DNA from: an uncultured Thiotrichales bacterium
GTDB lineage: Bacteria; Pseudomonadota; Gammaproteobacteria; UWMA-0217
Length of the DNA stretch: 64,000 nucleotides
Assembly: GCA_964620675.1 (NCBI GenBank)
Contig: CAZUJU010000012.1
Coordinates: forward strand, 2,251 to 66,250
Reading direction: 5' to 3'
The notes beneath the pieces were generated by a model. It did not search any database and was not told the origin of the DNA. It was given only the letters and a program-made list of their open reading frames with translations. Position 1 is the stretch's first letter; each line of letters opens with the position of its first letter. This document shows positions 8,730-62,133 of the stretch, one piece after another. The translations under genes were made by a program, and so were the position numbers.

Positions 8730-8898
8730 TGCGGTTTCTTCTTGCCAAGCTCGGTGCGGACCTACGCCGCACAGTATAGCCGAAGGCGACCGCCCCAATC
8801 GAAGCGCACCCATCGCATCCGCCGCCGATCACCGCGATAATGCAGCTCAGCTTAAAAGCCGCAGTCAAATCATCCAACCAAGGCAATAAATACGCGCG

Positions 8899-9699
8899 AT
8901 GTCGATCGAATGGGTCGCCGCCTACCTGTTACTAGGCGGCTTTGCGGGCTTTTTTGCCGGGCTGCTCGGGATAGGCGGCGGCGGCGTCATGGTGCCGATG
9001 CTGACCACGATTTTCGCCGCGCAGGCGTTTCCGCAGTCGCATCTGGTTCACCTCGCGCTCGGCACCTCAATGGCGGCGATCGTGATCACCGCCATTGCGA
9101 GCTTACGCGCACACCACGCCCACCGCGCCGTGTCGTGGTGGATCGTGAAACGAATTACCCCGGGCGTGTTGCTCGGTACCTTCGGCGGAACCTTTATTGC
9201 CGCCGCTGCCTCAACTGGCGCGCTGGCGATCTTTTTCGCCGCCTTCATGGGATACGTCGCGGTGCAGATGCTTCTCGATATCAAACCGAAGCCCGCGCGC
9301 GAGTTACCCGGGACACTCGGCATGAACGCGGTCGGGCTCGGTATCGGTGGCATCTCGGCCCTGGTCGCGATCGGCGGCGGGACACTGTCGGTGCCGTTCA
9401 TGACCTGGTGCAACGTCGGGTTGCGCCAGGCAATCGGTACTTCGGCGGCGATCGGGCTGCCTATCGCGCTGGCTGGCGCGTTCGGCTACGTGATCAACGG
9501 CTGGGGCGCGCGCGACTTGCCACCGTGGACGATAGGCTATGTCTATCTGCCCGCGCTGGTGCTGCTCGTAGCCACCAGCAGCCTGACCGCGCCGCTCGGC
9601 GCACGCATGGCCCACCGCCTCCCGGTTCGCACCTTGAAACGCGTGTTCGCCGGTGTGCTGGCGTTACTGTCGCTCAAAATGCTGCTGACGGTGTTGTAA
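8899..9699 (+). CDS. TauE/SafE family sulfite/anion exporter (DUF81) membrane protein
   Basis: MSIEWVAAYLLLGGFAGFFAGLLGIGGGGVMVPML... has the glycine-rich TM1 signature of the TauE/SafE family. There are 7-8 predicted TM helices, with an internal repeat (GLGIGGISALVAIGGGTLSVPFM). Confidence 0.85.
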   Translation: MSIEWVAAYLLLGGFAGFFAGLLGIGGGGVMVPMLTTIFAAQAFPQSHLVHLALGTSMAAIVITAIASLRAHHAHRAVSWWIVKRITPGVLLGTFGGTFIAAAASTGALAIFFAAFMGYVAVQMLLDIKPKPARELPGTLGMNAVGLGIGGISALVAIGGGTLSVPFMTWCNVGLRQAIGTSAAIGLPIALAGAFGYVINGWGARDLPPWTIGYVYLPALVLLVATSSLTAPLGARMAHRLPVRTLKRVFAGVLALLSLKMLLTVL

Positions 9700-9701
9700 G
9701 T

Positions 9702-10391
9702 TCAATGCGGGTCATCCACGCGTGCCAAGTACGCATCGGACCCGCTGCCGTTCGGTTTTCGGCCGTAGCGATTGATCAACATCCACACCAGGGTGATGAA
9801 TTCGGATTGATTGAGACGCGGCTCGCCAAGCACCGCCAGCAAGAACCGTCGCGCGCCGATGAACAGGGGCCAGACTGCGATCCGGCTGGAGCCGAAGGCA
9901 TCGAGCGCACCCCAGCCTTGCGTGGGTAGCTTGAGACAGTGTTTGAGGCGCGCCGCGTGGCGGAGTTGAACCGCCGCGAGGTCCGCGCTCAACGCCGACA
10001 AGGCGTCGACGGTCGCATCATCGAGCCCGATGCGCGCCAGCGGAAAGCCGTTTTCGTCGACCAGCAAGGCCTTGCCGATCGAACTCAGCCGGTGTAGCGG
10101 ATCCTGCAAATGGCGACCGAAACCCGCCTCGATGATACTGCGCGGGGCGCGAAAACCCTGCACCCACGCCAGAGTCTGGGCCTGGTGCAACAGTTGCAGC
10201 GCGTGCTGCTCATCCGCGACATGGAGCCAATGACTCAAGCGCGGCAGGTCGACTTGCGGCGTTTCGGCCTCGCCCAACAACGCCAGCAACAAGCGCCGCA
10301 ACGGTTCCGACTCGCAGCCGGTCACGGCGTAAAACGCCCCGGCGCTGGTTGGCTGCAAATAGAAGTGATCGATGAGTTTATAAGCGGACAT
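9702..10391 (-). CDS. Hypothetical protein, last gene of protoglobin/Roadblock operon (possible degenerate Roadblock-like segment)
   Basis: 229 aa with balanced composition. The segment ...KALLVDENGFPLARIGLDDATVDALSALSADLAAV is reminiscent of Roadblock/LC7 cores. It lies 6 nt downstream of the previous gene. Confidence 0.5.
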   Translation of the reverse strand: MSAYKLIDHFYLQPTSAGAFYAVTGCESEPLRRLLLALLGEAETPQVDLPRLSHWLHVADEQHALQLLHQAQTLAWVQGFRAPRSIIEAGFGRHLQDPLHRLSSIGKALLVDENGFPLARIGLDDATVDALSALSADLAAVQLRHAARLKHCLKLPTQGWGALDAFGSSRIAVWPLFIGARRFLLAVLGEPRLNQSEFITLVWMLINRYGRKPNGSGSDAYLARVDDPH

Positions 10392-10397
10392 CGCGGC

Positions 10398-11168
10398 TTA
10401 AACGAGTGCCGAAGTCCGGAGTCGAAACCTCGCACTCAGCTTGTCCCAAAGCTCGGGCAGCGCCAGCCTTCGGCCCGACAGGCGCGTGTAGGTCGCGGTA
10501 AAGGCATCCCCAAGGTCGTGACGTCGATACAGGGCGAGCAACTCCATGCTGGCGATCGGGTCACCAGGGTCGTCATCAAGCGTGCGCTCCAGCAACATCC
10601 GTGCATCGTCGATCCGGCCCTGTTCGATCCAGGCCCAGACCTGCTTGATCGCGGTACCCTGATCGGTATCGGCCGCGCCATCTCGTGCGTCGAGGGCGAC
10701 GATCGCGGTGACCCCTGCCACGCTACGCGACAGCAGCACACCCTGCATGTCTGGCGCAACTTCATCCGGCGCCACGCCACTGTCGAGTCGCCGCAGCAGC
10801 CATTCGAACTGGTCCTTGGGCAGCAAACTCAAGGTCTGCTCGAGCAGATTGACGCGCAGCGCACGGCCTTGGCGACCCAAAGCGATATTGAGATCCACCA
10901 GCGCGTGGAAACAACGCGCGGCGTCGGCTCGCGCCAAATGGAGCGAAACACGCTGAGCATGACTTAACAGGTCGCGCGGATTGCGGCAAATACGGCGCTC
11001 CAGCAGATCCGCGTGACGCACCCACGAGCCGATGTGCTCGGGATCCGGCAGCAGTTCCCGGGCCACCGGCAACAGTGCCGGTTCGACCCAAAAATTCCGC
11101 ACCGCCTCGAGCGAGCCCGCCGCGCCGGCGTCACTGCTCACGATTTCGAACACCGCATCCGCATCCAT
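10398..11168 (-). CDS. Hypothetical protein (256 aa), helical/TPR-like C-terminus
   Basis: There is no recognizable catalytic motif. The C-terminal part (...AWIEQGRIDDARMLLERTLDDDPGDPIASMELLALYRRHDLGDAF...) is TPR-like. It lies 12 nt downstream of the protoglobin gene. Confidence 0.5.
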   Translation of the reverse strand: MDADAVFEIVSSDAGAAGSLEAVRNFWVEPALLPVARELLPDPEHIGSWVRHADLLERRICRNPRDLLSHAQRVSLHLARADAARCFHALVDLNIALGRQGRALRVNLLEQTLSLLPKDQFEWLLRRLDSGVAPDEVAPDMQGVLLSRSVAGVTAIVALDARDGAADTDQGTAIKQVWAWIEQGRIDDARMLLERTLDDDPGDPIASMELLALYRRHDLGDAFTATYTRLSGRRLALPELWDKLSARFRLRTSALV

Positions 11169-11180
11169 CCGCGCTACCGA

Positions 11181-11750
11181 TTACCGCGCCGCCGACAGCA
11201 TGCTGTCGATCTCCAGGCTCACCAGGCGATACAGCAAGGTTTCGTTGAGCCCCGCGGCTTTATCGACCGCGGTGAACATATTGCGCTGGTAGCTTTCGGC
11301 GATCAGCGCCAGCACCACGGCCTGCAACGCATGGACGGCCTTGATCAGTTTCAGCGCCTCATCGGCCGGAAACGTGGCCAAGGCACGCTGGCCGAGGTAG
11401 GTCAGAATCCAGCCCCACATCCCCGCGACCATCGCGTTGTTGACGCGGCGTTTGATATGCACCAGCCCGACGTAGGTTTGCCATTCCCAATAGGGCAGAT
11501 CGAACGGGCCGGACAGGGTGCGCCGGTACCAGTCGCGCAAGGTCTGCTCGCGTTGCGGCCGCTCGTCATCGGTGAAGACCTTGCGCGTGGTCGGATGCTG
11601 GAACAGATGGTCGTAAAAGCCCTGTACCAGCCCATCCTCCCAGGTCAGCAGCACCTCTTTGTGACGAATGATCACATCGGCGTCGTCCTGGCCGAAACGC
11701 ACGGAATCCGGAATCTGATCGAGAATCTCCGCGGTTAAATTGTCGGTCAT
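11181..11750 (-). CDS. Stand-alone protoglobin / sensor-globin domain protein (189 aa)
   Basis: ...HKEVLLTWEDGLVQGFYDHLFQHPTTRKVF...LRDWYRRTLSGPFDLPYWEWQTYVGLVHIKRRV... matches the sensor-globin (Pfam Protoglobin) pattern: FYD.L...P.....F, W..L..G.YD, G..H.+.RV. The proximal His is likely in GLVHIKRRV. No output domain is present. Confidence 0.75.
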   Translation of the reverse strand: MTDNLTAEILDQIPDSVRFGQDDADVIIRHKEVLLTWEDGLVQGFYDHLFQHPTTRKVFTDDERPQREQTLRDWYRRTLSGPFDLPYWEWQTYVGLVHIKRRVNNAMVAGMWGWILTYLGQRALATFPADEALKLIKAVHALQAVVLALIAESYQRNMFTAVDKAAGLNETLLYRLVSLEIDSMLSAAR

Positions 11751-11771
11751 GCGATTTTTCCTCCGCCGGGG

Positions 11772-12140
11772 TTACATATTGAGGATGCGCGTGACTTCAG
11801 CGGCGGCCGCACTGGCCTCCAGCCGGACCAGGCCGAGATTGCCGCGCGCCGACGCGCGTACCGCGAGCACGCCACGCGGCCCCGCGAGGTAGATCAATAT
11901 CAAGCCGTCGCGTCCTTTTACCATGACTTCCTGGGTTTCACCGAGCGCGGCATTCGATGCAATGCGTCCGCCAAGACCCGAGGCGGCGGCGCTGACCGCG
12001 GCCACCCGCACGGCCTCCTCCTCGGGGAAATCGGTGGAAATCGAGAGTCCTTCATTGCTCGCGATCATCACCCCGGAGATATCGGGTACGTTTTCGCGCA
12101 ACTCGGTGTGGATCCGTTTCAATTCGTCGTTCTTGCTCAT
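11772..12140 (-). CDS. Roadblock/LC7 (MglB-like) domain protein
   Basis: 122 aa. ...ISGVMIASNEGLSISTDFPEEEAVRVAAVSAAASGLGGRIASNAALGETQEVMVKGRDGLILIYLAGPRGVLAVRA... is a typical Roadblock/LC7 alpha-beta-beta-alpha-beta core. Confidence 0.75.
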   Translation of the reverse strand: MSKNDELKRIHTELRENVPDISGVMIASNEGLSISTDFPEEEAVRVAAVSAAASGLGGRIASNAALGETQEVMVKGRDGLILIYLAGPRGVLAVRASARGNLGLVRLEASAAAAEVTRILNM

Positions 12141-12194
12141 GGCTTCATCCTGTGGGTGAGGTTTGGTGGTGGGTCGGTGGAAACGTTGTGGTGG

Positions 12195-13961
12195 TCAATC
12201 CGGGCCGTGGTGGGTGGGAACCAGCCGCTGCAAAGTCGCGCGCAAACGTTCGAAAAATCCGGTGCGCTTTGGCTGCGCGCGGTGACATGCGCCATACGGG
12301 CAATAATCGGGGGCATCGGGCGCCAGACGGGCCGCGCCGGGATTGGCGAGCTGGATCGATTGCAGCTCGCAACAGGCGTTATGGAAGCTGATCAGGGTTG
12401 CGTAGTCGACCCCGGTTTCGCGCGCGATGGTCGCGAAGTCCGCCGCTTGCGTCGTCATGAACGCCGCCAGCTGCAGATGCTGTGGGGTATGCGGAACCAC
12501 AGTGAAATCCGGGGCCTCGCGCAGTCGAATTTGCCCTTCCGGGTCGGCAAACTGGCACAGGCGACCGCGTGAGCCGTACAACGCCGCGCAATAGAACAAT
12601 TGCCAGAGCGGACGCGGTTTGACGCCCGGCAGCAGCTGCCCCGCGGTCACATCGCGGGTCTGAAATCGCCAGACCGGCACGGTATAAAGATCGGGAAACG
12701 CGTCCAATGCGGCCGGGAAAAGAAACGTCCCGGTAATCGGCAAGATCTGGAGCGGCGGATAATCCTCCGCAATCACCTCGGTGGCATGCCCCTGTGTCGT
12801 CAGCGCACGCACCAGTCCGAGCAGCCGAACCTGAGGGCGAAACAGGCGCGATGGGCGCGCGAGTTCGCGAATCGGGTGCGGTGACGACATCGGCAGCAAT
12901 CCCTGAAGCGACGGCTCCGCGTCCGGCGCATCCGCACCGATTGGCAACGACGCGTTGGAACGCGCGGTGCGGCCACCGATCGAAACCACGCTCGACACCA
13001 CGACAACCGGCGGCTCGCCGCGCGGCGCCGCCGGCACCGGGGTCGCCAACGCGACATCGATCACCGCTTCGTCATTGGCGAGCACCGCGGCTGGTGGCGC
13101 CTCCGGCGGCGACCGTTCCGGCGGCGAAAACGCCTCTGCGGCGACGCTCGCGCCGGTCGCAGCCCAGTGCGTCGACGTTCCGTCGCCCGCGCCGTCGCTT
13201 GCGGGGGAAACGCGACCCGCGACGGCGGTCAAGGGCGCAGCCGGCCAGCGCGGTTTGCCGCGACGAGGCGGCGGCGCCAACACGCGGCGCTCAGGGTTCG
13301 GACGGTAAAAGTCACTAATCAGCTGGGCGATGATTTCACCGGTGGGACTCGGATCGAGCACCCGCAGCGCCGCTGGCGATCCAACGCTCAGGCTGACGTT
13401 CTGCTCACTGGTGACGGTACTCGATGCGGCTCCGTCCCCTACACTGAACGGCTCCGTCAGCGGGGCCTGCGGCGATTCCATCGGCGCCAAGTCCCGATCT
13501 GCCGCGATCTCCGGCACCGGGACCACGGCGATCGCCGAGGTGGCCACCGGCGGCAGGGCCTCGCCCAGACGACCGGATTCGGCAAACCGTCGCGGTTGGC
13601 CTTGGCGGTATGCCAGCCGCAGCGAGCGCTCGATGGATTTCAGCGCCCCGACCAGTGCCGGGTAGGTCGCTGGTAGCGCGATCCGCGGTACCGGAAAGGC
13701 GGCGACACCGGTGTCCCGCGCCAACAGAACCACCGGCAAATCCGGGTCGGCAGTTGACGCAAGTGGCAACCAAAACGCGGCACCCGCCGTACTCTCGATA
13801 TCGATCAGCACCGCATCGGCCTCGGCCGCCGATGCGACGGTCCGCCAAGCGGACAGTTCGATCCCGCAGGCCAAATCCAGCACCGCCTGTTGCAGCGTAA
13901 GCGTCGCGGCGTCCAGCCCAATTGTCGCCAATGCGTAAGAATTCATGAATCGAGTATTCAA
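12195..13961 (-). CDS. Large protein with degenerate receiver (REC)-like N-terminus, approx. 200-aa Pro/Ala-rich linker and conserved C-terminal domain of unknown function (588 aa)
   Basis: The N-terminus (...AVLIDIESTAGAAFWLPLASTADPDLPVVLLARDTG...) resembles a CheY-like fold. The linker is Pro-rich (PPPRRGKPRWPAAPL...SPPERSPPEAPPAAV...). The C-terminal approx. 230 aa form a globular domain (..WRFQTRDVTAGQLLPGVKPRPLWQLFYCAALYG...). It is the first gene of the operon. Confidence 0.6.
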   Translation of the reverse strand: MNTRFMNSYALATIGLDAATLTLQQAVLDLACGIELSAWRTVASAAEADAVLIDIESTAGAAFWLPLASTADPDLPVVLLARDTGVAAFPVPRIALPATYPALVGALKSIERSLRLAYRQGQPRRFAESGRLGEALPPVATSAIAVVPVPEIAADRDLAPMESPQAPLTEPFSVGDGAASSTVTSEQNVSLSVGSPAALRVLDPSPTGEIIAQLISDFYRPNPERRVLAPPPRRGKPRWPAAPLTAVAGRVSPASDGAGDGTSTHWAATGASVAAEAFSPPERSPPEAPPAAVLANDEAVIDVALATPVPAAPRGEPPVVVVSSVVSIGGRTARSNASLPIGADAPDAEPSLQGLLPMSSPHPIRELARPSRLFRPQVRLLGLVRALTTQGHATEVIAEDYPPLQILPITGTFLFPAALDAFPDLYTVPVWRFQTRDVTAGQLLPGVKPRPLWQLFYCAALYGSRGRLCQFADPEGQIRLREAPDFTVVPHTPQHLQLAAFMTTQAADFATIARETGVDYATLISFHNACCELQSIQLANPGAARLAPDAPDYCPYGACHRAQPKRTGFFERLRATLQRLVPTHHGPD

Positions 13962-56138: not shown

Positions 56139-56168
56139 CGCACCACCCCAGACCTACCCTGGGGGCGG

Positions 56169-56339
56169 ATGTCGTGCATTCATCAAAAACACCTTGCATT
56201 GCGAAAAATCAAACCTAAAATAACATTGAGGGTAGAGAGGGTGATTCGCACAAGAAGTCCCGTAAATGTCTGTAGACAAAAGGGCTCTTTGTGGCAAATA
56301 GACAACAAAGTCGTTGAGAAGAAGCTGGTTTTAATATAG
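56169..56339 (+). CDS. Candidate small basic protein (56 aa) in AT-rich islet, not in ORF track
   Basis: ATG at 56169 is preceded by GGGGGCGG. It encodes MSCIHQKHLALRKIKPKITLRVERVIRTRSPVNVCRQKGSLWQIDNKVVEKKLVLI. Codon usage is AT-rich and atypical for the host. It could be a chance ORF. Confidence 0.2.
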   Translation: MSCIHQKHLALRKIKPKITLRVERVIRTRSPVNVCRQKGSLWQIDNKVVEKKLVLI

Positions 56340-56579
56340 ATAAAGCGATTCTGACGACTGACGGGTCAGGTACGGGAATACGATCTTTCGTTTTTCGACG
56401 GATCTTTGCGGCAGTTGCGCGATAATTACGTTAGAGCGTTTTTGTTTTAGCTGTAACCGCTTGATCGTGCGTCGCTTCCGCCCCACCTCTCCCTGTACGC
56501 AACCGAGGTCTTGACCAAACGCGTCGAGACTCGATTATTACAAATGCCGTTAGGCACGCAGTGCGTGTGGAGGATTTTG

Positions 56580-56741
56580 ATGGAAGGTTTTGCAGTTCTA
56601 ATGCTCTCACTGTTCTTTGTAGCCGCAATTGCCGCACTGGTGGCGACGATCCGGGCATGCCGCGCCAACAATTCCTGCGGCACACTGCTGGATCACGAGC
56701 ACAAATCCAAACACAATCAAACCGTAAGCGGACATCGCTAA
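56580..56741 (+). CDS. Candidate small single-TM membrane protein (53 aa)
   Basis: ATG at 56580 has GGAGGA 5 nt upstream. It encodes MEGFAVLMLSLFFVAAIAALVATIRACRANNSCGTLLDHEHKSKHNQTVSGHR. The ORF track lists a longer version, 56511..56741. A terminator-like hairpin plus T5 follows. Confidence 0.4.
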   Translation: MEGFAVLMLSLFFVAAIAALVATIRACRANNSCGTLLDHEHKSKHNQTVSGHR

Positions 56742-56762
56742 GCCCTCAGGAACGGGCTTTTT
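56740..56762 (+). terminator. Putative intrinsic terminator after small membrane-protein ORF
   Basis: aagccc-tcaggaac-gggctt followed by ttttt (56758-56762). The stem is short (6 bp). Confidence 0.35.
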
Positions 56763-56948
56763 GGCAGTCTGCCGGGTTCGAAGCGAACCGGCGGACCTGT
56801 TTAATCGGGTGGAATAGACGAGAGCAATTCGCTCCGAATTCGCGTTCGTTCGCCAACTGTCTGTGGTGGCGAAAGCACGGAGGGTACTGCGCACAGGGAT
56901 TGAATCGATCCCTTCCGCTCTCACGCCCGCTATAGAGCGATAATCCGC

Positions 56949-57338
56949 ATGAACACGATGAAAGCATCAACCTTGGACGAGTGGGAATCCGCGCTCCAAA
57001 ATCGGCTGAGCAGTTATGACCAGCGGGGTGGATTCATTTTTTACCTCCCCGATGCGCGCCCCGACCTCGCGCTGAAGCTTGCCAGAAAATTCGACTACGA
57101 TTTTGTCGACTACCAACAACATATTGCACTCGCGTTGGGTCGTGACGCGTACTTCCTGACCCTGAGTCGACTCGATGAAATCATAGCCAATCTCACGCTT
57201 CAGAAGGGGATCGTGCTCTACAACGTCGAAACCTTGCTGTGCTGGAAAACACCGAGTGAACGCCGCGCCTGGTTAAGTCGATTTCTGATTACGCCCTGGG
57301 CTAACCCTGTTGTACTCGCGCTCGTTCCCTGCGGGTAG
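56949..57338 (+). CDS. Hypothetical protein (129 aa)
   Basis: MNTMKASTLDEWESALQNRLSSYDQRGGFIFYLPD... with no recognizable motifs. It lies in/adjacent to the AT-rich islet downstream of moaA. Confidence 0.45.
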   Translation: MNTMKASTLDEWESALQNRLSSYDQRGGFIFYLPDARPDLALKLARKFDYDFVDYQQHIALALGRDAYFLTLSRLDEIIANLTLQKGIVLYNVETLLCWKTPSERRAWLSRFLITPWANPVVLALVPCG

Positions 57339-57433
57339 CGACTGGTGGCCGATCGGCGGTGTGCGACCGGCGGTCGTCTAAGGACTGCCGGGCTTGAGCA
57401 GTTGCCGACTGATAGACCTCCATGGACCGAGGC

Positions 57434-58153
57434 TCAAACCTTGATGTAAATCCAGCCCTGTTGCATCCGGCTCACAATCTGTCCGACTGCGGAAGGCACC
57501 ATCTGCGCCTCGGGCAGAAGCTTGACGACCGCGCCTTCGCGCTGCAAGCGCGCAACGGTTTGACCACAGGCAACGAAACTCAGGTGACTATAACGGAGTG
57601 ACAGATCGGTGACGCGCCGGGCGAATGGCGAACTTTCCTCCCGCAGGAGGTCAAGTCCGTAGCTATTTGCGACCACCTCGACCTCGGGGTCCCGACCGGC
57701 CGCGGCCGCGTCGGCCAGCAACTTCTCGACGCTATCGAGTACGATCGTGAGACGCTCCTCGTCGCCCGAATCGATATGCAAAATCACCTTGCCCGAACGG
57801 GCCGCCTGCCTGAACTGCGCCGGCGTCAGACCCTGCAGCCCCATCGCCCAACCGGACTCCGCAGGCAGCGGTTTGAGCCACCAGCCGCCGCCGAATCCGA
57901 GGGTGAATACGACGAGCACCGCTGCCGCGACCGCACCGATCTGGGCCCAATTCTTCGCCACCCGGCGTTGCTCGCGCTGAGGCGGATGCCCGTAGGCAAG
58001 CCGCGTCAACCCCTTCATACCGCGCAAGAGGCAGATTCGATTTGATAACTCGGTGTCGAGCTGCATCGCCTCGAACAGCTGCTCGGCCTCGGGCGAGTCC
58101 AGCTCGCCATCGACAAAGGCGTTTAGCATCTCATCGGAGATCTCCCGCCTCAT
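57434..58153 (-). CDS. Anti-sigma factor (N-terminal anti-sigma domain, one TM helix) with C-terminal DsrE/DsrF-like (YchN-fold) domain
   Basis: MRREISDEMLNAFVDGELD... is the typical RseA/ChrR-like anti-sigma N-terminus. TM helix WAQIGAVAAAVLVVFTLGFGGGWWL. The C-terminal approx. 130 aa read ...GKVILHIDSGDEERL...VVANSYGLDLL...FVACGQTV...QQGWIYIKV, resembling DsrE/YchN-like proteins with the conserved Cys. It overlaps the sigma-factor gene by 4 nt. Confidence 0.7.
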   Translation of the reverse strand: MRREISDEMLNAFVDGELDSPEAEQLFEAMQLDTELSNRICLLRGMKGLTRLAYGHPPQREQRRVAKNWAQIGAVAAAVLVVFTLGFGGGWWLKPLPAESGWAMGLQGLTPAQFRQAARSGKVILHIDSGDEERLTIVLDSVEKLLADAAAAGRDPEVEVVANSYGLDLLREESSPFARRVTDLSLRYSHLSFVACGQTVARLQREGAVVKLLPEAQMVPSAVGQIVSRMQQGWIYIKV

Positions 58154-58692
58154 TTCACCCTCCGCAACACCGCGGCCGCCTGATTGCTCTGGGCTCGGGC
58201 GAGGCAGGCCTTCAATGCCGCGCGCGCGCGCGACAGCCGACTCATGACCGTACCAACGGGAATGTTCAAGGTTTGCGCCACTTCGGCATAACTCATCTCC
58301 TCAAGGTCCACCAGCGTCAATACCTGCCGTTGCCCGAGTGGTAGGCGCGCAACCGCGGCGCGTACGCATTCGATCAACTGACCCCGACTACACGCCTCCT
58401 CCGGGCTCACATCGGGATTGGGCAGACTCGCGTGCAACTCGTCGATATCTTCAAAACTACCCGCGCGGCGCAAATGATCACGCCAACAGTTGTTCAGAAT
58501 TGCGACCAACCAGCCCACCAGCGCCGCTTCCTCACGCAGTTGCGCCCGTCGCGCCAACGCCTTGCTGAGCGTCTCCTGCACCAAGTCGTCAGCCAATGCG
58601 GCATCGTGGCACCAAGCGAACGCCAAGCGGTAAAGGCGCGGTCGCTGCTGTTCCAGACCTGAGTCCGGCTTGACAAACGAAATCAATCCCAT
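58150..58692 (-). CDS. ECF (sigma-70 family group IV) RNA polymerase sigma factor
   Basis: Region 2 ...RLYRLAFAWCHDAALADDLVQETLSKAL... and region 4 ...LVDLEEMSYAEVAQTLNIPVGTVMSRLSRAR...; 180 aa. Confidence 0.85.
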   Translation of the reverse strand: MGLISFVKPDSGLEQQRPRLYRLAFAWCHDAALADDLVQETLSKALARRAQLREEAALVGWLVAILNNCWRDHLRRAGSFEDIDELHASLPNPDVSPEEACSRGQLIECVRAAVARLPLGQRQVLTLVDLEEMSYAEVAQTLNIPVGTVMSRLSRARAALKACLARAQSNQAAAVLRRVK

Positions 58693-59015
58693 CGTGGTAC
58701 TGCTCTCTCGACCTACGGCGTCGCTTGCCCGGGCAACAGCCCGAAAGCGCCGACGGCAATCGCCTCGCGACTGCGGTCAATGTTGTTGGTTTAAGGTTAA
58801 GACGCGAACCACACGCCATTCATTCCGTGCCATATCGATCGCCATGACAGCGCTGGCGGACGAGCCGCCCGACGCGGAATAAAAACAGCATGCGAGACGT
58901 CCTATGAAATATGGCGCAGCCGCAGCCGCACTGCAACCTGTGTGAGGCCTCTGCCGCCCTAATCGCGCGACGCAAGCGCGGCGAGGATGCCGAAGATCGT
59001 CAATACCCCGTGTTT

Positions 59016-59039
59016 GGCCCCATTCAGGGGCCATTTTTT
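59016..59039 (+). terminator. Plus-strand intrinsic terminator (GGCCCC-attca-GGGGCC + T6) overlapping the last codons/stop of minus-strand pgl
   Basis: tgtttGGCCCCattcaGGGGCCaTTTTTTc. On the minus strand the hairpin is followed by a non-U sequence (aaacacgggg), so it is oriented for plus-strand transcripts only. No annotated plus-strand gene lies upstream. Confidence 0.5.
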
Positions 59040-59746
59040 CAGGAATCGCATGCAGTCGGGTCGCTCCAGACTTCGCGTTTCGGGGCCAGAATGCGTGCCG
59101 CTGGCAACGCATCGCCGGCGCGCCAATGTGCCACCGGTATGCGCTTATTGGCGCCTAGCACCAGAAATATCACGCGCTCTGCGGCGGCCAGGCGGGCCGC
59201 GCTCATACTCACGCGCTCGGGCGGCGGCTTGGGCGCTGCGAACACCGCAATCGCATCCGGTGCATCCGGCGCAAATCCAGCCTCGTCGCCGGGAAACAGG
59301 CTCGCGGTATGCCCGTCTTCGCCGAGCCCGAGCAACACCAGATCAAAACGACCGACTTCGGACAAGGTCTGCGCGTATGCACGCGCCGCACGCAACGCCC
59401 CTAATTCGGACGGGATGCGCTTGACCTGCCCGCGCGGTACGTCGACCGCATCAAGCCAGGCGGTATCGGCCATCGTATCGTTGCGGTTGGGATCGCCCGC
59501 TGGCAGGCATCGTTCGTCACCAAAATAGATGTACCAACGCGACCAATCCGCAGGCAACGTACGTAGCTCACGATAGAGCCGTTCGGGGGTACGGCCGCCG
59601 GCGAGCACAATTCTAAACGCTCCCCGCGCGGCGATAGCCGCTTCCGCAGTCGTGGCAATCGTATCGCGCGCCGCCGCCACGACCGCGCTTTCGTCGGCAA
59701 ACACCCGCCAGATCGGGGCCGGAAACCCGCTTGCTTCAGAGCTCAT
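59039..59746 (-). CDS. pgl: 6-phosphogluconolactonase
   Basis: The internal Met of ORF 59039..60121 at aa 126 (MSSEASGFPAPIWRVFADESAVV...FRIVLAGGRTPERLY...VLLGLGEDGHTASLFPG) is the likely start. The upstream 125 codons of that ORF overlap zwf out of frame. The ATG at 59746 overlaps the zwf stop region by 11 nt. Confidence 0.85.
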   Translation of the reverse strand: MSSEASGFPAPIWRVFADESAVVAAARDTIATTAEAAIAARGAFRIVLAGGRTPERLYRELRTLPADWSRWYIYFGDERCLPAGDPNRNDTMADTAWLDAVDVPRGQVKRIPSELGALRAARAYAQTLSEVGRFDLVLLGLGEDGHTASLFPGDEAGFAPDAPDAIAVFAAPKPPPERVSMSAARLAAAERVIFLVLGANKRIPVAHWRAGDALPAARILAPKREVWSDPTACDS

Positions 59747-61214
59747 TGCGCCACTGCTGATCCTCGGCATCGAACAAGCGTTCCGCCCCGCGCGGCCCCC
59801 AGCTACCGGCCGGATAGGTCGCGACGTAATCTTGGTCACGCGCCCACACCCGCATGATCGGATCCACCACCCGCCAGGCCCATTCCACCTCGTCGAAACG
59901 AATAAACAAACTGCGATCCCCCTCGATGACGTCGAGCAACAAGGTTTCATAGGCATCCAGACGACGTTCGTCCGGCGCGCGATAAGAGGCGTTGAGTCGC
60001 ACCACGCGGGTCTCCATACCCAAGCCCGGCTGCTTGGCGTGCAACTCCACATGCATGCATTCGTCGGGCTGGATCGACAACAACACCCAGTTCGGCGCGA
60101 TGTGCTCAACCGGGGTCTCACGGAACAGCTGTTGCGGCGGGTGCTTGAAGCGGATCGCGATCAGCGACTGATTTCGCGCCAGGCGCTTGCCGGTCCGCAG
60201 ATAGAACGGCACATGGCGCCAACGCCAGTTGTCGATGTAAAACTTCGCCGCAACGAAGGTTTCAGTGGCTGACCCTCGGGCAACCCCCGCCTCCTGGGCA
60301 TAGCCGGCAACATTGCGACCCTCGCTGTGTCCTCCGGCGTACTGCGCGCGATAGGCGTAGGCGTTGACGGACTCACGCGGTATCGCGCGTATCGATCGCA
60401 ATACCTTGACCTTTTCGTCCCGCAATGCGTCCGCTTCGAGTATGGCCGGAGGCTCCATCGCGACCGCCGTCAACAGTTGCATCAAATGGTTCTGCAGCAT
60501 ATCCCGCAGCGCGCCGGTCTGGTCGTAGTAACCGGCACGAGTACTGATGCCGTCCGATTCCGCCACGGTGATTTGTACGTGATCGATGTAGTTTCGGTTC
60601 CAGATCGGCTCGATCAAGGTGTTGGCGAAGCGAAACACCAGCAGATTCTGCACCGTTTCCTTGCCGAGGTAGTGATCGATCCGGTAGATCTGCTCTTCGT
60701 CAAAATGCTGATGCAACAGGTTATTTAACTGCCGCGCGCTGTCGAGATCCTCGCCGAACGGTTTCTCGACCACGATGCGATGCTGGCCCGCCCGACCAAG
60801 ACCGACCGCGCTCAGGCGGGTCACCACATCACCGAAGTCTCCGGGTTTGATCGAGAGATAAAATACAGTACGCCCGCCGTCGCCGCTCTCGGGCTGGCGC
60901 AACCCGGCCTTGAGCCGGACATAAGCCTCGTCGTCGCGCAAGTCGCCGCGCAAGTAGGTAAAGCGGGCCGCGAACCGCTTGAAGACGGCTTCTTCGAACC
61001 GATCTCCCACCCGCTCCGCCAACGCGCGCCGCATTTCCTCGCCCCACATTGCGTCGGTCCATTCGCGGCGGGCAAAAGCGACGAAACGCAGCCCCTCGGC
61101 AAGGCGCCCGGCCTCTTCCAGGCGATATAAAGCTGGCAACAGCTTGGTCATCATCAGATTGCCGGTGGCGCCAAAGATGACGAAATAACACGGTTCCTGC
61201 GAGTCCTGAATCAT
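59736..61214 (-). CDS. zwf: Glucose-6-phosphate 1-dehydrogenase
   Basis: FVIFGATGNLMMTKLLPALY (NADP-binding) and RIDHYLGKE (active-site motif). 492 aa. Confidence 0.9.
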   Translation of the reverse strand: MIQDSQEPCYFVIFGATGNLMMTKLLPALYRLEEAGRLAEGLRFVAFARREWTDAMWGEEMRRALAERVGDRFEEAVFKRFAARFTYLRGDLRDDEAYVRLKAGLRQPESGDGGRTVFYLSIKPGDFGDVVTRLSAVGLGRAGQHRIVVEKPFGEDLDSARQLNNLLHQHFDEEQIYRIDHYLGKETVQNLLVFRFANTLIEPIWNRNYIDHVQITVAESDGISTRAGYYDQTGALRDMLQNHLMQLLTAVAMEPPAILEADALRDEKVKVLRSIRAIPRESVNAYAYRAQYAGGHSEGRNVAGYAQEAGVARGSATETFVAAKFYIDNWRWRHVPFYLRTGKRLARNQSLIAIRFKHPPQQLFRETPVEHIAPNWVLLSIQPDECMHVELHAKQPGLGMETRVVRLNASYRAPDERRLDAYETLLLDVIEGDRSLFIRFDEVEWAWRVVDPIMRVWARDQDYVATYPAGSWGPRGAERLFDAEDQQWRNEL

Positions 61215-61221
61215 ATCCGGC

Positions 61222-62133
61222 TTACTCCTGCCCCTGGACGGCGTGGCCGCCGAAGCCCTTGCGCATCATCGCCAGCACCTTGTTGGAAAAGTCCGCCGAG
61301 CCCTGGCTGGCGAAGCGCTCCATGAGCGCCAGACTCATCACCGGCGCCGGCACCCCGAGTTCGATCGCCTCCAGCGCGGTCCAGCGCCCTTCACCAGAAT
61401 CGGCGACATACGCCTTGACGGCATCAAGGGCTTGATCCTGTTTGAGAAAATCCGCGGTCAGATCGAGCAACCAACTCCGCACCACGCTGCCGTGGCGCCA
61501 CATCTCCCCGATCGCCGCCAGATCCAACCCGAACTCGCGCTTGCTTTGCATCAGCGCGAAACCTTCCGCCAGCGCCTGCATCATCCCGTATTCGATCCCG
61601 TTGTGGACCATCTTGACGAAATGTCCGGCGCCGACCGGACCACAATGCAGCCAGCCTTGATCCGACCCGGGCGCCAGCACTTTCGCGTACGGCTCGATCT
61701 GCGCGAACGCCGCGGCAGACCCACCCACCATCAACGCGTAACCATTCTCCAGCCCCCACACGCCGCCTGAAACGCCGGCATCGGCGAATTGTAATCCGCG
61801 CGCCTCCAGCATCCGTCCGCGCCGCACGGAATCCTTGTAGTAGGAATTGGCCCCATCCACCAGAACATCGCCCGGCGCCAACAACGAGGCCGCTTCGCCA
61901 ACGTGAGCCTCGGTGATATCGCCGGCCGGCAGCATCAACCAGACCACGCGCGGCGGCGTCAACTGCGCAACCAAGTCGGTCAGCGAGGTCGCCACCGCAA
62001 CGCCAGTTTCGTCGGCCAACTGGCGCGTCACCCCCTCGCTACGGTTGAACGCGACCAGCGGCACGTCCGCACGACGCAGACGGCGAGCCATGTTCGCCCC
62101 CATGCGCCCCAGCCCTACCATGCCTAGATTCAT
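61222..62133 (-). CDS. gnd: 6-phosphogluconate dehydrogenase, decarboxylating (short approx. 300-aa form)
   Basis: MNLGMVGLGRMGANMARRL (Rossmann GxGxxG) and ...GAGHFVKMVHNGIEYGMMQ... (6PGDH signature). It is the first gene of a gnd-zwf-pgl operon. Confidence 0.85.
   Translation of the reverse strand: MNLGMVGLGRMGANMARRLRRADVPLVAFNRSEGVTRQLADETGVAVATSLTDLVAQLTPPRVVWLMLPAGDITEAHVGEAASLLAPGDVLVDGANSYYKDSVRRGRMLEARGLQFADAGVSGGVWGLENGYALMVGGSAAAFAQIEPYAKVLAPGSDQGWLHCGPVGAGHFVKMVHNGIEYGMMQALAEGFALMQSKREFGLDLAAIGEMWRHGSVVRSWLLDLTADFLKQDQALDAVKAYVADSGEGRWTALEAIELGVPAPVMSLALMERFASQGSADFSNKVLAMMRKGFGGHAVQGQE

Follow-up and report, generated by a model that had tools for sequence, protein, structure and literature searches.

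An extracytoplasmic function sigma/anti-sigma pair with a DsrE-like periplasmic domain

The 64-kb stretch of DNA analyzed here (contig CAZUJU010000012.1 of an uncultured Thiotrichales bacterium; hereafter the window) encodes on its minus strand an extracytoplasmic function (ECF) sigma factor and a membrane-anchored anti-sigma factor, the predicted periplasmic part of which has a DsrE-like fold with a single, invariant cysteine (Cys196). In our assessment the pair is, with somewhat more than even probability, an ECF signaling switch in which this single-cysteine domain serves as a thiol-based sensor of reactive sulfur. A preceding sequence-only reading of the same DNA had proposed an ECF sigma/anti-sigma pair at these positions. 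Both open reading frames were recovered exactly, and the sigma factor matches the corresponding Pfam and NCBIfam models. The pair and its parts are organized as follows.

58150-58692, minus strand: ECF sigma factor gene (open reading frame of 180 aa; motifs LYRLAFAWCHD and NNCWRDH)
57434-58153, minus strand: anti-sigma factor gene (open reading frame of 239 aa; ATGA overlap with the sigma gene)
57983-58153, minus strand: predicted cytoplasmic anti-sigma N-domain, residues 1-57, three helices (AlphaFold2 model and weak profile matches)
57881-57949, minus strand: predicted single transmembrane helix, residues 69-91, N-terminus in and C-terminus out (hydrophobic segment WAQIGAVAAAVLVVFTLGFGGGW in the translation; helix 69-89 in the AlphaFold2 model; positive-inside rule)
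57437-57832, minus strand: predicted periplasmic DsrE-like (MTH1491/COG1416-type) sensor domain, residues 108-239 (homology, Foldseek, AlphaFold2)
57566-57568, minus strand: codon of Cys196, the only cysteine of the periplasmic domain and the proposed sensing thiol (translation, homolog alignment)

The sigma factor matches Pfam Sigma70_r2 (E-value 2.7e-12) and Sigma70_r4_2 (5.1e-19) as well as TIGR02937 (sigma70-ECF; 83.5 bits with a cutoff of 42.9). It contains only the sigma-2 and sigma-4 domains and its length of 180 aa falls within the range of the class (about 180-200 aa), as is characteristic of ECF (group IV) sigma-70 factors. No NCBIfam equivalog model was matched at its cutoff, the best being PRK12511 with 116.9 bits against 185, and the main text of the ECF classification (Casas-Pastor) mentions neither DsrE nor sulfur. 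Over its full length, the protein is 88 and 71% identical to its counterparts in the related loci L007 and L008, respectively. The stop codon of the sigma gene and the start codon of the anti-sigma gene overlap in an ATGA, indicating translational coupling, and the anti-sigma gene lies directly downstream of the sigma gene in every locus examined, distant lineages included.

Anti-sigma domain and membrane topology

The AlphaFold2 model of the 239-aa anti-sigma factor, based on an input alignment of 36 sequences, has a mean pLDDT (predicted local distance difference test) of 84. Its N-domain is modeled as helices 7-14, 20-32, and 34-55 with pLDDT values of 84-95. Profile similarities to known anti-sigma domains are weak. 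The N-domain matches Pfam zf-HC2 below the threshold (E-value 0.013; 16 bits with a cutoff of 22.2), a model that is found at an E-value of at most 0.01 in 12 of the 36 family members (best 1.3e-4), and the family profile aligns in register with the N-domains of MucA and RseA at E-values of 0.45 and 0.57, respectively. The zinc motif H-x3-C-x2-C is absent; since the aligned N-domains contain no conserved His or CxxC, this is not a zinc-binding anti-sigma (ZAS) protein. Considering these scores together with the invariant translational coupling, we regard the predicted anti-sigma function of the 239-aa protein as safe.

The 15 residues preceding the transmembrane helix contain on average 3.25 lysines and arginines versus 1.39 after it, and in 31 of 36 sequences it is the N-terminal flank that carries more of these basic residues. 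Because of this bias, the N-domain is predicted to be cytoplasmic and the C-domain periplasmic, in line with the signal peptides of free-standing paralogs (see below). The single helix and the extracytoplasmic location of the C-domain, both part of the sequence-only reading, thus agree with the topology prediction. Residues 89-107 form a disordered linker between the helix and the C-domain in the model.

Cysteines are also conserved on the predicted cytoplasmic side. Among 68 sigma factor sequences, C69 is present in 100%, C28 in 99%, C101 in 84%, and C109 in 79%, with H29 in 93%; the N-domain of the anti-sigma factor contains one nearly invariant cysteine, C41 (codon 58031-58033, minus strand), the sole one of its kind in this domain. 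It is conceivable that these residues form a cytoplasmic layer of thiol or metal control.

A sister ECF system occurs in the metagenomic loci L103 (2205-4222) and L153. Its sigma factor, 40% identical to that of the window and in L103 devoid of C28 and C69, is directly preceded by a promoter of the class described below for the present family (TGGAATAA-N-CGTCTT). The corresponding anti-sigma factor of 263 aa joins a similar N-domain to a periplasmic domain of unrelated type, and the gene of a cytochrome c' is located divergently upstream. This organization points to an exchange of sensor domains inside a single ECF clade.

The C-domain belongs to the MTH1491 branch of DsrE-like proteins

The C-domain of 131 aa is modeled as an alpha/beta domain (residues 111-238) with pLDDT values above 94. 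A phmmer search against the PDB retrieved the archaeal protein MTH1491 (1l1s_A) with an E-value of 4.3e-12 over residues 122-238, and ST0148 (2pd2) with 1.6e-4; with the family profile these values become 9.9e-15 (1l1s_A) and 1.4e-5 (2pd2_A). Foldseek placed the same structure on top (1l1s; E-value 2.2e-9, TM-score 0.88, root-mean-square deviation 1.8 Å), followed by 2pd2, by a designed cage protein labeled ‘DsrE-like’, and then by TusBCD and DsrEFH chains with E-values of about 1e-2. The latter chains (2d1p_C and 2hy5_C, probability 0.99-1.0) are of the B/H type and not the catalytic E/D type. An unrelated fold, which together with a non-conserved cysteine the sequence-only reading had named as overturning it, was not found by either search. 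Judged by homology and modeled fold, the domain is a bona fide member of the DsrE-like superfamily, which we place in the uncharacterized MTH1491/COG1416 branch and not among the catalytic DsrE/TusD proteins. The resemblance to DsrE/DsrF/YchN that had been noted from the sequence therefore holds for the fold; at the sequence level, no alignment with TusD was obtained.

The motif FVACGQTVA spans residues 193-201, with Cys196 inside it. All 36 homologs, the most distant of which are 36% identical, keep this cysteine, as had been anticipated, and H126, N163, G166, G233, W234, and Y236 are further invariant residues of the C-domain. The last 135 aa contain exactly one cysteine in all 36 anti-sigma factors, and so does the mature part of all 120 free paralogs described below. 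A single invariant cysteine per domain excludes a structural disulfide within the domain and points to a functional thiol. In the phmmer alignment, Cys196 corresponds to Cys72 of MTH1491 (numbering of PMC5495134), and a cysteine at this junction of beta3 and alpha3 is kept in MTH1491 as well as in the paralog classes P1, P2, and P3. The central, parallel strands 122-127, 157-162, and 191-196 carry H126, N163, and C196 at their C-terminal ends, so that, going by the modeled fold, these three residues probably share one pocket.

The equivalence of Cys196 to Cys78 of TusD was also considered. It is left unsupported by hhalign, which gave no alignment between the family profile and TusD.

A conserved promoter motif and a secreted DsrE-like paralog

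Clustering the open reading frames of 86 related loci and the window placed a second gene in the anti-sigma cluster. It encodes about 140-170 aa and lies divergently, immediately upstream of the sigma gene. These divergent paralogs are free-standing DsrE-family proteins with PF02635. Signal-peptide-like N-termini are present in 109 of 120 paralogs, some of which have lipoboxes, and the conserved His, Cys, and C-terminal G-W/Y-x-Y motifs are the same as in the sensor domain. The sensor domain itself shares 23-28% identity with paralog classes P1 and P2, 15% with P3, and 27% with MTH1491. Such identities indicate that it is a distinct and old branch, apart from the paralogs. Where sufficient upstream sequence is available, the divergent paralog is found in 72 of 85 loci; at six loci its place is taken by a major facilitator superfamily (MFS) transporter gene and the divergent promoter is lost there.

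A target promoter motif, the search for which had been proposed along with the pair, could be defined. Of 42 non-redundant regions upstream of the sigma gene, 41 yielded TGGAATAA...CGTC in a de novo search for bipartite motifs (best of 20 shuffles: 6 of 42). The geometry is always GGAAT-N17-CGTC, and the reverse complement of the motif, facing the paralog, is present in about 30 of the 42 regions. A position weight matrix (PWM) was used to scan 1.05 Mb of locus DNA at a score of at least 17. It gave 143 matches, 57 of which lie upstream of the sigma gene, 49 upstream of the paralog, and 37 in the same intergenic zone where the gene caller had failed; no motif was found outside this sigma/paralog intergenic zone within ±7 kb. 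Among the 72 loci with a paralog, 69 have the sigma-facing and 63 the paralog-facing motif. This placement implies that the local regulon consists of the sigma operon and the secreted paralog. From the position of the motif and its ECF-like form, we infer that the sigma factor uses GGAAT-N17-CGTC. A co-transcribed anti-sigma gene and a promoter of the autoregulatory type with a GGAA-like -35 and a CGT-like -10 element are both typical of ECF systems. A pattern scan of metagenomes for unlinked targets yielded at least 120 loci. Of the 120 listed, about 17 are genuine sigma/paralog regions and the rest resemble chance matches, with no new target family among them.

Distribution and novelty of the family

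The anti-sigma factor of the window is identical to a hypothetical protein of a metagenome-assembled genome (MAG) named ‘Thiotrichales bacterium’ and has 178 close homologs, nearly all of about 225-260 aa. With the C-domain alone, 983 proteins were retrieved at E-values of at most 1e-3 and 547 at most 1e-10 from 1.84 billion representatives at 50% identity, and among the best 150 of these matches, 133 are as long as the full fusion and carry the domain at their C-terminus. When one genome per GTDB species was scanned, a relative turned up in at least 221 species genomes. The best 80 of these belong almost all to Thiobacillus, Hydrogenophilales, Thiobacillaceae, Sulfuriferula, Thiotrichales, and Arenicellales; T. 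denitrificans, T. thioparus DSM 505, and the completely sequenced Sulfuriferula sp. GW1 (NZ_CP170197.1) are among them. Members of Sulfuritalea and Rhodocyclales are also among the close homologs. This is thus a large family, mostly of sulfur-oxidizing bacteria.

Automatic annotation has named the homologs ‘hypothetical protein’, ‘intracellular sulfur oxidation DsrE/DsrF family protein’, or, once, ‘transmembrane anti-sigma factor’. The searchable literature (anti-sigma or ECF together with DsrE, COG1416, MTH1491, and Thiobacillus ECF) contained no description that we could find of this domain combination, in agreement with the earlier remark that it is not a well-described one. While the ECF/anti-sigma pair is of a known kind, the class of DsrE-like sensor domains appears to be new.

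Two of the loci, L019 from a MAG labeled Rhizobium sp. and L061 from a MAG labeled Hyphomicrobiaceae, are Thiobacillus-like, and at its N-terminus the sigma factor of L019 hardly differs from its counterpart in T. thioparus DSM 505 (L036). Their contigs may be mis-binned in these MAGs.

Proposed mechanism and alternatives

In the mechanism that we propose, the N-domain of the anti-sigma factor would hold the sigma factor at the membrane at rest. Periplasmic reactive sulfur species (persulfide/polysulfide, thiosulfate, or sulfite) would modify Cys196, upon which the domain would change its conformation or oligomeric state. The anti-sigma factor would then be inactivated, probably by regulated proteolysis as for RseA, and the freed sigma factor would amplify its own expression and induce the periplasmic DsrE-like protein, presumably a sulfur-binding or sulfur-carrier protein. 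In the lineage of the window, where the paralog is absent, the divergent promoter would drive a short terminated transcript instead. A sulfur or persulfide signal, as suggested from the sequence, gains in strength because the family sits in sulfur oxidizers and because its predicted regulon is a secreted DsrE-like paralog. Genes of sulfur or thiol metabolism that recur close to the pair in some loci (TauE, FCSD, DsbC, and a YeeE-type Sulf_transp gene; see below) also count in favor of the proposal. There are precedents both for ECF control by a sulfur compound, as ECF26 sigma factors respond to sulfite (PMC3511301), and for a periplasmic DsrE-like gene within a sox operon, as in Methylovirgula thiovorans HY1 (PMC9371685).

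Several observations weigh against this sulfur-sensing switch. Pfam DsrE (PF02635) matches the C-domain below its gathering threshold (16.6 versus 22.7 bits; E-value 0.0088) and reaches an E-value of at most 0.01 in 9 of 36 family members. Compared with E. coli TusD, which has its Cys at position 78, the family profile has an hhalign probability of 0.3% and no alignment passing through the cysteine. The same cysteine is present in MTH1491, an uncharacterized archaeal protein of the cytoplasm, so its conservation alone does not specify sulfur chemistry. The anti-sigma identity of the N-domain is based on weak scores plus gene context, and what we propose for the signal, for Cys196, and for release by proteolysis is deduced. 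The window itself encodes no sulfur-oxidation gene within about 10 kb, the neighbors being gnd, zwf, pgl, moaA, a DEAD-box helicase gene, rho, and purD. Nor does it encode a free paralog. A hidden Markov model of 100 paralogs, searched against the six frames of the 64 kb, matched the anti-sigma gene only, and a paralog elsewhere in the window was accordingly rejected.

The main rival to direct sensing is titration by the paralog: the induced secreted protein and the sensor domain would assemble into mixed oligomers, and no small molecule would be sensed directly. Free or unloaded paralog would stabilize the anti-sigma factor as a negative feedback, and paralog that is loaded with sulfur or engaged with a client would leave it, releasing the sigma factor; the read-out could be a Cys-to-Cys transfer of sulfur from paralog to sensor. 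Such an arrangement fits a regulon whose sole local member is a paralog of the sensor domain with the same His, Cys, and C-terminal motifs. It also fits the closest solved homolog MTH1491, a stable homotrimer (PMC5495134), and the next structural matches DsrEFH and TusBCD, which are hetero-oligomers of paralogous DsrE-fold subunits. However, the sensor is an old separate branch with the low identity to P1 and P2 given above, and the window, L007, L008, and the six MFS loci keep an intact sensor with no adjacent paralog, although one could be encoded elsewhere. We rate titration as possible and rather unlikely. A bolder version, to which we likewise give only a small chance, regards the DsrE-like domain of the anti-sigma factor as a decoy subunit that would exchange into trimers with the secreted carrier or take its sulfur from Cys to Cys. 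The cell would then read the loading of the carrier pool and not a free ligand, and the cysteines of the sigma factor and N-domain would add a second, cytoplasmic layer. Such a system would be the first extracytoplasmic reactive-sulfur sensor built on sensor/effector paralogy.

The signal might also be unrelated to sulfur. The His/Cys/Asn pocket, with H126 and C196 both invariant, could bind a metal (Cu, Zn) or report periplasmic oxidative or thiol-redox stress as part of a general envelope redox defense, and the link to sulfur oxidizers would be merely phylogenetic. A stress response would fit the NADPH supply that gnd-like and zwf genes next to the pair could provide (at least six loci: the window, L007, L001, L011, L078, and L087), the lack of a terminator between the anti-sigma gene and gnd in L001 and L087, the DsbC-like gene in an operon with the paralog in L090, the GST and peroxiredoxin genes near the system in L088 and L090, and the conserved cysteines of the sigma factor itself. 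Yet the distribution is strongly skewed to chemolithotrophic sulfur oxidizers, sulfur-relay proteins are the only other known members of the fold family, and the conserved neighborhood of the annotated loci contains no metal-resistance genes. A non-sulfur signal seems somewhat more doubtful still than titration. Very improbable, finally, is that the 239-aa protein is not an anti-sigma factor but a membrane-anchored periplasmic DsrE-like sulfur carrier, merely co-transcribed with a sigma factor that is regulated otherwise. The zf-HC2, MucA, and RseA similarities of the window protein are all below significance, the canonical zinc-binding motif is absent, and elsewhere, sulfur transport has been proposed as the role of a DsrE-like protein bound to the membrane (PMC9371685). 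This reading is countered by the coupling to the sigma gene in every locus even in distant lineages, a conserved helical N-domain of 55 residues that is confidently modeled, and the detection of zf-HC2 in a third of the family members (12/36). The N-domain is, moreover, recognizably like that of the sister-system anti-sigma factor with its different periplasmic domain, and the conserved surroundings offer no further candidate for regulating the sigma factor.

Comparison with known systems

To our knowledge, periplasmic sulfur sensing in chemolithotrophic sulfur oxidizers is poorly understood, and we know of no function assigned to the secreted proteins of the DsrE family (COG1416), which are common among them. 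Should the sulfur signal be true, the pair would represent a new sensor-domain class for ECF signaling, provide the first functional handle on the COG1416/MTH1491 family, and offer an orthogonal sulfur-responsive sigma/promoter pair for synthetic biology. The circuit is compact and testable, with a sensor domain carrying one candidate reactive cysteine, a defined promoter motif, and essentially a one-gene regulon, and cultured carriers exist (Thiobacillus denitrificans, T. thioparus DSM 505, Sulfuriferula sp. GW1).

The organization is similar to that of RseA/MucA with sigma-E/AlgU. The sigma gene precedes a translationally coupled anti-sigma gene, the anti-sigma factor has a helical N-domain (matched in register by profile), one transmembrane helix, and a presumably signal-receiving periplasmic C-domain, and the sigma operon is predicted to be autoregulated from a promoter of the GGAA/CGT type. 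In contrast to the RseB-binding region of RseA/MucA, the periplasmic domain here is DsrE-like; the N-domain match is non-significant (E-value about 0.5), rseB- or rseC-like genes are absent, and proteolytic release is assumed.

The ECF26 sigma factors RpoE1 and RpoE4 of Sinorhizobium meliloti share the theme of inorganic sulfur, presumed for the present system, and a small regulon consisting of their own operon and one periplasmic sulfur function. As here, their promoters carry GAA and GT in the -35 and -10 elements, respectively (PMC3511301). The anti-sigma factor of these systems has a COG5662 periplasmic domain, however, and their target is the sulfite dehydrogenase SorT (PMC3511301), whereas the anti-sigma factor described here is DsrE-like and no sulfite oxidase gene (sorT/sorAB) is present in the window or the annotated loci. 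It is by these features, and not by sigma phylogeny, that we set the two systems apart.

With MTH1491 (1l1s) and ST0148 (2pd2), the sensor domain has in common its sequence homology and fold, a His after beta1, a Cys after beta3, and a C-terminal GW-Y, but MTH1491 is a soluble homotrimer of the archaeal cytoplasm, while the present domain is predicted to be periplasmic and is fused to a transmembrane helix and an anti-sigma domain. DsrEFH and TusBCD share the DsrE alpha/beta fold and the proposed chemistry, a persulfide on a conserved Cys. These are cytoplasmic heterohexamers with partner genes, unlike the predicted periplasmic domain here, for which a TusD alignment is lacking and no dsrF/dsrH- or tusC/tusB-like genes occur in any neighborhood examined. 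The secreted DsrE proteins of sulfur oxidizers (for example that of HY1) have a periplasmic DsrE fold linked to sulfur oxidation, and the sigma-adjacent paralogs are of this kind (PF02635, signal peptide), with no orthology implied. They differ in being stand-alone proteins with no regulatory module, and we found no literature report of secreted DsrE proteins that are under ECF control or fused to an anti-sigma domain.

Promoters, short transcript, and neighboring genes in the window

The 346-bp intergenic region between pgl and the sigma gene contains both a sigma-facing and a divergent promoter of the ECF type, which have the second-highest (20.6) and highest (23.0) PWM scores of the 64-kb window (next 7.6). 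The features of this region are listed below.

58801-58826, minus strand: putative ECF-type promoter of the sigma operon, GGAATGAAT-N-CGTC (-35 GGAAT at 58822-58826, -10 CGTC at 58801-58804; PWM score 20.6)
58876-58901, plus strand: putative divergent ECF-type promoter, GGAATAAAA-N-CGTC, pointing away from the sigma gene (PWM score 23.0)
59015-59039, plus strand: intrinsic terminator-like hairpin, TGGCCCCATTCAGGGGCCA followed by six T, about 115 nt downstream of the divergent promoter and at the pgl stop codon
58908-59039, plus strand: candidate ECF-dependent transcript of about 130 nt, bounded by promoter and terminator

The divergent promoter occupies the position at which, in other genomes, the secreted DsrE-like paralog has its promoter. 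L007 (76% identity) and L008 (56% identity), the closest relatives, also keep this promoter and lack the paralog gene, and L008 has a hairpin with a T-run as well. The hairpin of the window is retained in the centroid fold and has no T-run for the minus strand. No convincing open reading frame was found in the candidate transcript, only a 13-aa peptide and a spurious frame antisense to pgl. A conserved structured small RNA was considered here and rejected, given that the transcript has no Rfam match, a fold z-score of -0.66, and a body that is not conserved in L007 or L008.

Upstream of the pair and on the same strand lie the gnd-like gene, zwf, and pgl (59039-62133, minus strand); downstream are a convergent open reading frame of 129 aa, moaA, and the DEAD-box helicase gene. 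The 129-aa frame (56949-57338, plus strand) has no significant Pfam or NCBIfam match, and a homologous frame occupies the same place in L007. The 810 nt between it and moaA (56139-56948) have a G+C content of about 0.53 versus 0.60-0.63 nearby and contain only short implausible open reading frames, with no tRNA, tmRNA, or Rfam match at an E-value of at most 1. Two sub-threshold Rfam matches look like chance: CRISPR-DR23 within the anti-sigma coding sequence (58097-58129, minus strand; 26 bits, gathering threshold 45) and Chloroflexi-1 (57350-57421, plus strand; 21 bits, gathering threshold 80).

Recurrent neighbors in related loci

The gnd-like gene that, in loci of different lineages, adjoins the pair together with zwf encodes a short-type 6-phosphogluconate dehydrogenase-like protein. 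In the window, pgl joins the two, and all three precede the sigma gene (gnd-zwf-pgl); elsewhere the order is sigma, anti-sigma, gnd, zwf. The gnd/zwf stretches of L001 and L087 span 8809-11223 and 9786-12228, respectively. Between the anti-sigma gene and gnd of these two loci there is no sigma-70-like promoter either, and the PWM scans of the window and the loci found no motif copy upstream of gnd or zwf. The adjacency could tie the system to the supply of NADPH.

TauE and GST genes are found near the system in Sulfuritalea-type loci, and an FCSD gene in L001. In the metagenomic locus L090 (3837-5034 and 7588-8772), the paralog shares its operon with the DsbC-like thiol:disulfide isomerase. 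Within 6 kb, this locus also has a YeeE/YedE-type Sulf_transp gene, a DUF302 gene, and a second ECF sigma gene accompanying a gene like pgl.

Several genes of the Thiobacillus loci were considered as partners and rejected, being absent from other lineages and thus a matter of lineage synteny. These are orn, rsgA, petA/petB, and the gene of a DegS/AlgW-like protease, as well as genes for a small cytochrome c, a porin, a CBS protein, and a pterin dehydratase. The DegS/AlgW-like protein is an S1C protease with one PDZ domain. In about 48 Thiobacillus-type loci, its gene follows the anti-sigma gene 2-3 kb downstream, beside petA/petB (in L036 at 9515-10705, minus strand). This position probably reflects housekeeping synteny, yet the protein is a candidate site-1 protease.

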